Source: SAR86 cluster bacterium (lineage in GTDB: Bacteria; Pseudomonadota; Gammaproteobacteria; Magnimaribacterales; TMED112). From it: a stretch of DNA of 64,000 nt. A program made the position numbers. Shown here in pieces: positions 30,001 through 33,000 of this stretch. The DNA is taken from assembly GCA_023703555.1 (NCBI GenBank), contig CP097968.1, positions 765,168 to 829,167 of the forward strand. The letters run 5' to 3'. Numbering within the stretch: position 1 is the first letter of the stretch; each line of letters starts with the position of its first letter.

Positions 30001-33000
30001 TTATTTTTCCTCCCTTCTGGATTAGTGAAGACAATCAGCTCAAGATCATTTTCTTTTTTGACTTTATCTCTAAAGGCATACATCTCTTTAAACTTCCACA
30101 AGGTATCAACGTGCAAAAGTGGGAATGGTATTTTTCCAGGGAAAAATGCTTTTTTTGCTAAATGTAGCATTACAGAACTGTCTTTTCCTAATGAATAAAG
30201 CATCACAGGATTTTTTGCTTCAGAAAACGCTTCTCTGATTATGTGAATCGATTCAGATTCTAGTGTCTCTATGTGAGTTTTCATTATTTAATGGAGGCTG
30301 AGAACGGAATCGAACCGATGTTAACGGAGTTGCAGTCCGCTGCATGACCACTCTGCCACTCAGCCAGTTGAGTAGATTTTAAACTAATAATTGTAAGAGT
30401 CATCTTTAAAAGGCCCATTTTCATCAACAGAAATATACTCTTGCTGTTGCTGGGTTAATTTTGTTATTTTCCCTCCAAACCCCTCAACCATTAATGATGC
30501 AACTTCTTCATCTAGTCCTTTTGGCAAAACCTTAATATACACTTCTTTATCAACATCGGCTTTTTTAGCATGTGCATTTTTAAATAGCATGATTTGTGCA
30601 AGAACTTGATTACAAAAGGAGCCATCCATAACTCTGCTTGGATGCCCAGTTCCTAAAGCTAAATTTACTAGGCGCCCTTCACCAAGGAGCAATAAATAGT
30701 CATTGTCTGCTCTTATAACCTTATGGACCCCAGGTTTAATTTCATACCAATCATATTTTTTTAGATAGTTAACATCTATTTCATTATCAAAGTGTCCTAT
30801 ATTACATATTACACAAGCAGTTTTCAGAGCATCAAGCATAAATCTATCTAAAACATTTATGTTTCCTGTAGCTGTAACTACAAGATCATATTTTTTTAAA
30901 AGATTTGAATCTATATTTTTGCCCTCATTATTAATTATTCCATCTGCATAGGCTGAAACAACAGAATACCCATCAAAACATGCTTGCATTGCACATATAG
31001 GGTCTACTTCTATAATATCCACAATCATTTTCTGATTGTTTAATGCATCTGCAGTACCTTTACCAACGTCCCCATAACCAATTACCAAGGCTTTTTTACC
31101 TGACAATAGCATATCTGTGCCTCTTTTAATGGCATCATCAATGCTATGCCTACAGCCATACTTATTATCATTTTTTGATTTAGTTATTGAATCATTAACA
31201 TTAATAGCTGGGACCCTTAGTTCTCCTTTTGCCAGCATTTCCTTTAATCTATGTACTCCAGTTGTTGTTTCTTCTGAAATGCCATGTATAAAATTAAGCA
31301 TTTCTGGGTATTCTTGATGTACTTTGATAGTAAGATCCCCACCATCATCAAGAATCATATTGGCATCCCAAGGTTTTCCATCTTTGCATATTGTTTGCTC
31401 TAAGCACCACTCATATTCCTCTTCTGATTCTCCTTTCCATGCAAAAACTGGAATACCAGCAGCAGCGATAGCAGCAGCAGCATGATCTTGTGTAGAAAAA
31501 ATATTACAGGAAGACCATCTAACCTCAGCACCTAAATCAATGAGTGTTTCAATAAGAACAGCTGTTTGGATAGTCATATGAATGCAGCCCATAATCTTGG
31601 CACCTTTGAGAGGCTGCTCATCTTTGTACTTTGCTCTTAATGCCATGAGCGCTGGCATTTCATCTTGAGCCATTAAAATTTCTTGTCTGCCAAATTCAGC
31701 AAGACTAATATCTTTTACCTTAAAATCTTGCATTAATCTTCGTAGTAAGAATATCTCTCTATATCATCTTCTACAGTCTCTTGGCCGAACTGAATTTCAA
31801 TAATCTTGCATGTCTCTTCAAATGGATTGGTTATTTGATGCCAGTCGCCCAACTCAACCGTAAGATGATCAAATCTAGAGAGATTAATTTCTTTCGTGCT
31901 TTCAGGAGATTCTTTTGAATAATTAACAACACACTGGCCTTCAGAGACTAACCATATTTCGCTTCTTTTGAAATGCTTTTGCAAGCTCATGCCTTTTCCA
32001 GGTTTTATTATAAGCTCTTTTACCTTTACACCTTCAGACTCAAATAAATTATAAAAATTCCCCCAAATCCTCTCTTCGCCATCATATTGCCAGTTTTTCA
32101 GTATCCAGCTACTAGAATTTTTTTTGTCATCTCCTCCAACACTAAAAACAAAATTTACCCCCTCAACGCTCATTTCTGGAATGTTATCTTTGCCTCTATC
32201 TCCACCGTTACAGAAATTTATTTCACTTTCAGGATACATATTCTTAATTTTTACTAGTGCTTGGGTTGCGCTTCCAAGTTCATCGTCTTCAAAGTCAATT
32301 ACTTCATCCACTTCTTTGACATTTTCTAGAACTGATTTTCTTTCCTCAAATGGCATAAAGGCTTTACCTTTTTTATTTACCAACCACTGATCACTATTAA
32401 GGGCAATTATTAAGTAGTCTCCATATGCTTTTGCTGACTTAATATAAGATATATGCCCGGAATGAATAGGGTCAAAGCCGCCGCTTACAACTGTAATTTT
32501 CATGTGCTAATTTTAAACTAATTTAATTGGCTTTTCCCAGAGAAAACCTTGGTTTTCCCGACCAAAATGCCCATAGTTTGTTGTTGTTTTGTAGATAGGT
32601 TCAAGAAGATTGAGATCATTTATGATGCCGCTTGGTGTTAAATCAAAATTTGATTTTACCAATTGCTCAATTTCATTAAGATTTAAAGCCTCAGATTCAA
32701 AAGTATTAATGAATACAGAAACTGGCTCACAAACTCCAATTGCATACGAAGCCTGAACCTCGCAATATTTACAAAGATCTTCACTTACTAATGATTTTGC
32801 CACTCTGCGCAGTGCATAAGCTGCGGAGCGATCAACCTTAGAGGGGTCTTTCCCAGAAAAAGCCCCTCCACCATGACGAGCCATACCTCCGTAAGTATCA
32901 ACAATAATCTTGCGGCCAGTTAAGCCACAGTCACCTACAGGCCCGCCTATTTCAAAACGTCCTGCTGGATTAATAAAAAATTTAGTCTTATCATCTAAAA

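Follow-up and report, generated by a model that had tools for sequence, protein, structure and literature searches.

A putative ManC-like enzyme of GDP-mannose synthesis with a HIGH-motif transferase domain in SAR86 bacteria, other microorganisms and T4-like phages

In ManC (ManC/AlgA/XanB; TIGR01479; CpsB in Escherichia coli), a transferase of approximately 350 amino acids (a GT-A NTP_transferase domain and a β-helix) and a PF01050 cupin share one polypeptide that serves both the initial and the final step of GDP-mannose synthesis. A non-homologous fold, the HIGH-motif Rossmann domain, is found in a superfamily whose known members use ATP or CTP and for which one sugar substrate is known, β-heptose-1-phosphate; its only enzyme acting on a sugar-1-phosphate (of manno configuration) is, to our knowledge, HldC/RfaE domain II (TIGR02199). 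Here we analysed a 64,000-nucleotide stretch of a SAR86 cluster bacterium genome (assembly GCA_023703555.1, contig CP097968.1, positions 765,168–829,167; hereafter, the window), in which an open reading frame (ORF) between metK and ahcY joins a HIGH-type nucleotidyltransferase (NT) domain of approximately 140 amino acids to a cupin of the ManC type. Conserved motifs and gene neighbourhoods suggest that this fusion is probably a bifunctional GDP-mannose pathway enzyme that follows the logic of ManC with a non-homologous transferase half, and we classify it as a putative bifunctional enzyme of the ManC type in which a non-homologous domain has taken the place of the transferase.

Each half of the fusion has described counterparts. 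HldC/RfaE domain II is partnered by a PfkB kinase or SIS isomerase domain, and the heptose enzymes listed as HENases are only mono-, di- and tri-domain proteins, none with a cupin (PMC11573728). Minimal phosphomannose isomerases (PMIs; Thermococcus, Protein Data Bank (PDB) 7zvm and 7zvy) have the same small cupin fold as the fusion and no fused transferase, which illustrates that a cupin of around 110 amino acids can be a stand-alone PMI-type protein, as in two loci described below (L093 and L094). Cyanobacteria and cyanophages have monofunctional type II MPIs, likewise stand-alone cupins that are not fused to a transferase; the cyanophage paper reports them as frequent viral genes and does not describe the fusion (PMC9602691). 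Our search of the full-text literature found no description of a PF01467–PF01050 enzyme or of a HIGH-type mannose-1-phosphate transferase, although absence there is no proof.

Domain architecture, conserved motifs and predicted fold

The fusion gene (31733..32503, minus strand) starts with ATG and encodes 256 amino acids. It corresponds to the ORF proposed in a sequence-only reading of the window, which gave no strand, and the motifs quoted there (GGFDPIHSGHISYI, PGKGMSLQKHFKRSEIW, IEIQFG and EDDIERY) are all present. Pfam searches assigned residues 7–81 to CTP_transf_like (PF01467; 9e-15, 55.5 bits, cutoff 21) and residues 145–251 to the C-terminal cupin MannoseP_isomer (PF01050; 1e-17, 64.9 bits, cutoff 23.6), and gave no match to PF00483 in the fusion. 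The sole NCBIfam model that the protein passes is the generic superfamily model TIGR00125 (54.5 versus a cutoff of 27.7). More specific models fall far under their cutoffs: the nearest are rfaE_dom_II (TIGR02199, 62.5 bits) and TagD (TIGR01518, 59.1) for the N-terminal half and the ManC equivalog for the C-terminal half (TIGR01479, 60.8 versus 372.95), with PRK15460 scoring 39.8 versus 859.

We judged conservation on an alignment of 51 diverse family members. The N-terminal domain (approximately residues 1–140; 32084..32503, minus strand) contains HSGH at residues 14–17 (32453..32464, minus strand), the HxGH signature of the HIGH superfamily, in which H17 is invariant and H14 and G16 are at least 90% conserved. 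Also kept in this half are NSDxWL, K44-K45, R55, NGGDR (99–103), E110 and K127-x-N-SSS (130–132). The C-terminal cupin (approximately residues 141–256; 31733..32083, minus strand) retains RxWGxY, S173-x-Q175-x-H177-xx-R180-x-E182-x-W184, G189, H222...N226 and E236-x-Q-x-G...E245-x-D-I-x-R250; of these residues, Q175 is at least 90% conserved, and no member departs from H177, R180, E182, G189 or H222. Residues G171, Q175, H177, E182, G189 and H222 match the spacing of cupin motif 1, G(X)5HXH(X)3-4E(X)6G, and of the motif 2 histidine. In the window, the codons of motif 1 (Q175-K-H177-F-K-R180-S-E182; 31958..31981, minus strand) place Q, H and E at canonical metal-ligand positions, and H222 (31838..31840, minus strand) is the predicted motif 2 ligand. 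The first ligand histidine of cupins is replaced by glutamine (Q175), as it also is in ManC (SVQMHHHRAEHW). The predicted ligand set, Q-x-H...E...H, is that of a metal-dependent sugar-phosphate isomerase of the cupin superfamily, and neither the catalytic histidines nor the cupin ligands have been lost.

The AlphaFold2 model (mean predicted local distance difference test score 87.3; predicted template modelling (TM) score 0.51) agrees with the domain models in showing two folded domains, one of Rossmann type (β-α-β) and one a jelly-roll cupin; poor order is seen in the KKNSSSW segment (residues 126–138), and the mutual orientation of the two domains is uncertain. In Foldseek searches of the PDB (best match per target), the cupin was closest to the minimal Thermococcus PMI 7zvm (TM-score 0.89, root-mean-square deviation 1.5 Å), with 7zvy also matched, and the N-terminal domain to TagD (2b7l, TM-score 0.82). 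Profile searches against PDB sequences matched the N-terminal domain to TagD, ECT and HldC and the cupin to generic cupins including 7zvm. Motif, fold and score all place the N-terminal half in the cytidylyltransferase-like HIGH superfamily (PF01467/TIGR00125).

Direct comparison with characterized enzymes separates the fusion from each of them. E. coli ManC has the same PF01050 cupin motifs and aligns only over its cupin (residues 371–472; 29% identity, 1e-13), whereas ManC residues 1–370 have no match in the fusion or in any locus that we fetched; the claim that the transferase half is unlike that of ManC therefore holds, and the fusion is approximately half the size of ManC. HldC/RfaE domain II has the fold and HxGH in common with the N-terminal domain, yet E. 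coli HldE aligns solely through the first half of domain II (41% identity over 75 residues), and the (F/L)xxG(R)STT motif of heptose nucleotidyltransferases (PMC11573728) is missing from the 51 members, which have K127-x-N-S130-S131-S132 instead. TagD (1coz, 2b7l) is the closest solved structure and its HxGH, lysine pair and arginine align with those of the fusion (Arg55), but the sequences align over the first half only, and RTxGISTT and the teichoic-acid context of TagD are absent. By these measures the protein appears to be none of the three: it lacks the transferase domain that defines ManC and fails the ManC cutoff, and it fails the cutoffs and motifs of both RfaE domain II and TagD.

Genomic ties to GDP-mannose synthesis

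E. coli reference proteins (from annotated K-12 regions) were searched by BLAST against all fetched loci, which are identified below by L numbers. Neither the N-terminal domain of ManC (E ≤ 1e-3) nor ManB matched any of 95 loci or the window. ManC matched the loci through its cupin alone, with SAR11 orthologues of the fusion reaching 49% identity to E. coli ManC residues 370–477. Within the window, Pfam searches of nearly all ORFs of at least 120 amino acids and tblastn over the 64 kb found no ManB, eukaryotic-type phosphomannomutase (PMM) or ManC N-terminal domain. The window does encode GDP-mannose 4,6-dehydratase (gmd; 22897..23991, minus strand; PF16363, 2e-141; 61% identity to E. coli Gmd) and GDP-L-fucose synthase (fcl; 21950..22900, minus strand; 49% identity to E. 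coli Fcl), so the combination described in the sequence-only reading, gmd and fcl with neither manB nor manC, is borne out. This Gmd is likely to be a consumer of the fusion product.

Across the wider family, we counted gmd as nearby when a true Gmd orthologue (47–71% identity to E. coli Gmd) was located within 10 kb of the gene. This was the case in 4 of 5 loci of Patescibacteria, all four Dadabacteria-like loci, 3 of 5 loci of gut Alphaproteobacteria, the one Holdemanella locus and one of two loci from other Gammaproteobacteria. Fcl and Gmm are frequent among the fetched loci too, and gmd, fcl, gmm and PMM are genomic partners that the family has in common with ManC. The partners of HldC/RfaE domain II, in contrast, belong to the heptose pathway.

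In one patescibacterial locus (L082), a single 665-amino-acid ORF continues in frame from PF01467 and PF01050 into a complete Gmd (65% identity to that of E. coli), with fcl as the next gene. Such NT–cupin–Gmd triple fusions (614–665 amino acids) form seven 90%-identity clusters drawn from NCBI, JGI and Logan on contigs of up to 135 kb, on which grounds we rejected an assembly artefact. Residues 1–251 of the window fusion align to one of them (P0275; 37% identity, 1e-45). In a further protein (P0278), the cupin is deleted save for its C-terminal tail and the NT–Gmd fusion persists.

Elsewhere the domains are encoded separately. A locus from a gut alphaproteobacterium (L094) carries, in one direction, genes for a GT2 glycosyltransferase, PMM, cupin, NT, a second GT2 glycosyltransferase, Gmd and Fcl; the PMM is of the eukaryotic type (PF03332, 1e-30), the cupin stands alone (PF01050, 5e-38) and so does the NT, which belongs to the subfamily of the fusion. 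By prediction, this locus encodes every step from fructose-6-phosphate to GDP-fucose, and the HIGH-type NT is the sole candidate guanylyltransferase in it. NT alone is found in NT–glycosyltransferase–gmd cassettes in three further loci (L080, L090 and L093). In a gammaproteobacterium (L071), the fusion lies between gmd-fcl and a WecA-like transferase gene, which is where manC sits in the colanic acid cluster of E. coli, and in a member of the Saccharibacteria (L091) it adjoins a PMM-like HAD protein. From three observations, namely that the domains can be encoded by adjacent genes, that the NT persists where the cupin is lost and that fusions to Gmd exist, we argue that the NT forms GDP-mannose and is the part that cannot be dispensed with. 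The cupin looks like an optional PMI and, as among ManC relatives, is absent from some members. The survey of taxa and neighbourhoods revealed a broad family whose relatives are linked to PMM, Gmd and Fcl rather than to an unrelated pathway. As a separate observation, a metagenome-assembled genome of a gut alphaproteobacterium (L085:9101-10426) encodes a 441-amino-acid GT2–NT fusion, the NT of which is 52% identical to the N-terminal domain of the window protein.

Proposed pathway and competing explanations

In the proposed pathway, the cupin would act as a metal-dependent PMI (ligands Gln175, His177, Glu182 and His222) that converts fructose-6-phosphate to mannose-6-phosphate, a separate PMM would supply mannose-1-phosphate, and the N-terminal HIGH-motif (HxGH) Rossmann domain would transfer GMP from GTP onto mannose-1-phosphate. 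The resulting GDP-mannose would be passed to Gmd and Fcl and to the mannosyl- and fucosyltransferases of the surface-glycan island. The domain layout, the conserved motifs, the fold, the distribution and the genomic associations were observed here, whereas both enzyme activities and the use of GTP are inferred. We also lean towards the broader view that a HIGH-motif (class I aminoacyl-tRNA synthetase-like) fold was recruited as a hexose-1-phosphate guanylyltransferase, a non-homologous but isofunctional replacement for the GT-A domain of ManC, and that SAR86, SAR11, many Patescibacteria and a large group of T4-like phages may obtain their GDP-mannose mainly or exclusively in this way.

Several points weigh against this assignment. 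We know of no HIGH-superfamily enzyme with GTP or a hexose-1-phosphate as substrate, and linkage to Gmd is the sole basis for proposing GTP. Gmd is encoded nearby in 4 of the 61 SAR86 loci and in none of the 12 SAR11 loci. The NT genes of the gut-bacterial cassettes are 70–78% identical to each other and count as one independent case. In phages, the transferase adjacent to the fusion is GT8-like, and GT8 enzymes are known as users of UDP-sugars. Finally, the ManC and ManB negatives cover the window and the fetched loci, and the genomes may carry canonical copies elsewhere. On the other side, galU, a housekeeping sugar-nucleotide synthase gene, is paired with the fusion in six SAR86 loci, which we count in favour of the GDP-mannose assignment.

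The product could instead be another mannose nucleotide (ADP-, CDP- or UDP-mannose), or the enzyme could be a promiscuous manno-sugar-1-phosphate transferase that also serves heptose-1-phosphate. The use of ATP or CTP by known HIGH-family enzymes and the GT8-like phage neighbour are compatible with this possibility, as are two SAR86 islands (L024:15610-20052 and L052:16498-19086) that encode gmhA, gmhB and a CBS-domain–GHMP kinase (HddA-like) and in which no HddC-type guanylyltransferase was seen within the fetched 10-kb flanks. However, the in-frame fusion to Gmd and the adjacency of Fcl and Gmm imply GDP-mannose where they occur, and we consider such an alternative unlikely. A dedicated NDP-heptose synthase, in which an HldC/RfaE-domain-II-type heptose-1-phosphate adenylyl- or cytidylyltransferase is joined to a cupin that replaces GmhA as sedoheptulose-7-phosphate isomerase (the counterpart, for heptose, of what a PMI does), would account for TIGR02199 being the top NCBIfam match and reaching further than the TagD match (residues 2–112), for the similarity to E. 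coli HldE (residues 341–415), for the naming of some members as heptose kinase/adenylyltransferase in JGI and for the configuration that mannose has in common with D-glycero-D-manno-heptose. That top match nevertheless stands at 62.5 bits against a cutoff of 181.5, and the GxSTT motif of HENases (PMC11573728) is replaced by KxNSSS throughout the fusion family. Moreover, gmhA and gmhB are found only in two or three SAR86 island loci (canonical copies of both alongside the fusion in L024 and L052, and a gmhA homologue in L051) and are absent from the gmd-linked loci, and there is no conserved heptose kinase or phosphatase neighbour, the conserved partners being PMM, Gmd, Fcl and Gmm. Given this coexistence with canonical gmhA and gmhB and the mannose- and fucose-pathway partners, we disfavour the cupin as a substitute for GmhA and regard a heptose synthase as improbable.

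The two activities might also be merely fused, with a PMI beside a TagD-like cytidylyltransferase for glycerol-3-phosphate (or another alcohol phosphate) that makes CDP-glycerol for glycan decoration. TagD (1coz) and ECT (3elb) are the top PDB sequence matches, TagD 2b7l is the closest structure of the N-terminal domain and glycerol-3-phosphate cytidylyltransferase is the annotation given to some phage copies. Against this, sequence similarity extends at most over residues 1–84, TIGR01518 covers residues 5–70 and scores 59.1 versus a cutoff of 165.4, and both the persistence of the NT–Gmd fusion after cupin loss (P0278) and the NT-only cassettes with gmd (L080, L090 and L093) are hard to reconcile with unrelated partners, making this arrangement very improbable. 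A last explanation has the cupin act, as an epimerase or ketoisomerase resembling RmlC or FdtA, on GDP-4-keto-6-deoxymannose, which Gmd makes; NDP-4-keto sugar cupins of these kinds are common in glycan clusters, and the cupin directly precedes Gmd in the triple fusion. The cupin match is nonetheless specific to PF01050 and the ManC PMI domain, with the Q/H/E/H metal site kept (RmlC-type enzymes are not known to depend on a metal), epimerization and reduction are already the task of Fcl in such clusters, and gmd is not near the gene in most loci of SAR86 and SAR11. We hold a role of this kind to be very improbable.

If the GDP-mannose assignment is true, current annotation pipelines would systematically overlook GDP-mannose synthesis in organisms that are among the ocean's most abundant, and a gap in metabolic reconstruction, gmd and fcl without manC, would be closed for streamlined marine bacteria and Patescibacteria. 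It would add GTP:hexose-1-phosphate transfer to a well-studied superfamily and provide a case of non-orthologous domain displacement within a bifunctional enzyme. The supply step would be identified for the hypervariable surface-glycan islands of marine bacteria, which, it has been suggested, change how these bacteria interact with phages and predators; a very common and unrecognized auxiliary metabolic gene would also be flagged in T4-like phages. One biochemical characterization would put thousands of annotations right.

Distribution, phage copies and genomic setting

The sequence-only reading called the fusion unusual. It is instead widespread: more than 7,900 metagenomic homologues came up in a word-indexed search, and the best 120 all have the same two domains, are approximately 257 amino acids long and are named at most 'cytidyltransferase-like'. 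When representatives at 50% identity were searched exhaustively, 204 clusters fell below 1e-30, mostly full-length matches of 245–280 amino acids with 35–65% identity. A scan of one genome per species found relatives in at least 572 species, including SAR86, Pelagibacteraceae (47–49% identity), Marinimicrobia, Dadabacteria/Thermodesulfobacteriota, Legionellales, Chloroflexota and several Patescibacteria, along with stand-alone N-terminal domains (approximately 50% identity) in gut Alphaproteobacteria and Holdemanella. Database labels are inconsistent (cytidyltransferase-like, cupin domain protein, heptose kinase/adenylyltransferase and glycerol-3-phosphate cytidylyltransferase), and the family is large, old and uncharacterized. 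A protein identical to that of the window is present in assembly GCA_902518645.1, and its cluster mates are labelled SAR86.

Full-length fusions (47–58% identity) also have at least 589 matches on IMG/VR contigs of T4-like phages. The conserved gene order there, taken from loci L099–L178 (for example, L160:4944-10233, L112:4553-5236 and L131:7241-7999), is gp32-like, UvsX-like, two small ORFs, S-adenosylmethionine (SAM) methyltransferase, fusion, GT8-like glycosyltransferase and a 279-amino-acid protein, and gmd is near the fusion in 6 of 80 phage contigs. The phage fusion is likely to be an auxiliary metabolic gene that supplies nucleotide sugar to the phage glycosyltransferase. The cyanomyovirus isolates S-SSM7, P-TIM68, S-SCSM2R, Sf-FS3 and S-SSM6a carry the NT alone. 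In S-SSM7 (SSSM7_186, L179:8983-9447), P-TIM68 (gp149, L180:6986-7447) and S-SCSM2R (S-SCSM2R_163, L181:11989-12450), the NT (44–50% identity) is encoded between the DNA polymerase gp43 and UvsX; these three go under the labels heptose kinase/adenylyltransferase, glycerol-3-phosphate cytidylyltransferase and hypothetical protein. This NT-only setting, in a replication module, is uninformative on the substrate.

In the window, the fusion is tightly packed between the genes for SAM synthetase (metK; 32513..33637, minus strand) and S-adenosylhomocysteine (SAH) hydrolase (ahcY; 30384..31733, minus strand); the ORF upstream was identified as metK with the help of the S-AdoMet_synt Pfam domains in the locus of the identical protein (L182). 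As claimed, the fusion starts 9 nucleotides after the metK stop (spacer 32504..32512, minus strand; L008 and L010 are similarly tight), and its TAA stop overlaps the ahcY ATG by one base, the final A at 31733. A promoter and terminator scan of 29800-37500 gave counts not above those of shuffled sequence and was uninformative on the operon. The metK–fusion–ahcY order with its tight spacing is kept in one SAR86 subclade (the window, L008–L016, L042, L043, L073 and L182), where the proteins are 60–95% identical to the window fusion and a variable island begins directly past ahcY.

Other SAR86 members have the gene at different sites. It lies between pntB and gyrA in L001–L007, L017, L020–L023 and L029–L031; the same junction in the window (49333..49359) is 27 nucleotides long and has no fusion, and its occupation in another subclade indicates that the gene was relocated within SAR86. 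The synteny flanking this junction is kept (pntAB, gyrA, serC, aroA, cmk and rpsA). Further SAR86 sites are past pgi-uvrC-pgsA at an island edge, past a MatE transporter gene and beside galU and rnd, and in SAR11 the fusion is found between polA and an MFS transporter gene. As the positions differ across SAR86 and SAR11, the fusion behaves as a broadly conserved gene of mobile position, often at island borders. The proposal that it may be a non-canonical sugar-nucleotide enzyme feeding the glycan island is supported by the comparison of relatives, but the gene is not part of the variable island. Its placement inside the SAM/SAH operon is real in terms of gene order and specific to one subclade; we found no functional link to the SAM cycle and rejected one, as the other sites lie elsewhere. 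Its site between metK and ahcY is best explained by densely packed operons bordering the variable glycan island of a single SAR86 subclade, not by a role in the SAM cycle. In SAR11 loci including L057:16042-17337, ahcY is five genes downstream of the fusion, which echoes the SAR86 layout and is probably coincidental.

The fusion directly adjoins galU in L040:9118-9999, L038, L048, L049, L079 and L083, and an RNase D-like gene flanks it in no fewer than four of these loci (L038, L040, L049 and L079). We had considered this 293-amino-acid GT-A NTP_transferase neighbour as a hidden ManC and rejected it: the protein is GalU, with 38–49% identity to E. coli GalU (45–49% in five of the six loci) and no ManC match.

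In the window, the core genes end at ahcY and give way to a surface-glycan and sulfation island (569-30284), which appears from its gene content to be built for a sulfated, sialic-acid-type glycan. The island encodes cysD and cysNC (an APS kinase fusion), two CysQ-like phosphatases (569-1327 and 26512-27306), a sulfotransferase (11801-12619), neuB (16852-17880), a polysialyltransferase-like protein (17992-18966), a neuC-like 2-epimerase (20830-21957) and a CMP-sugar synthetase (25857-26525), as well as gmd and fcl, glycosyltransferases and YjbH/Wza-type export genes. Genes for tRNA-Leu (24924-25010) and tRNA-Cys (30292-30365) are also assigned to it. A UDP-glucose/GDP-mannose dehydrogenase-like ORF (25010-25855) is short (281 amino acids) and has no match to the C-terminal domain; forms of 284–305 amino acids are located beside the fusion in SAR86 loci L027, L042, L043 and L052, and the short length may be a conserved trait rather than the sign of a pseudogene.

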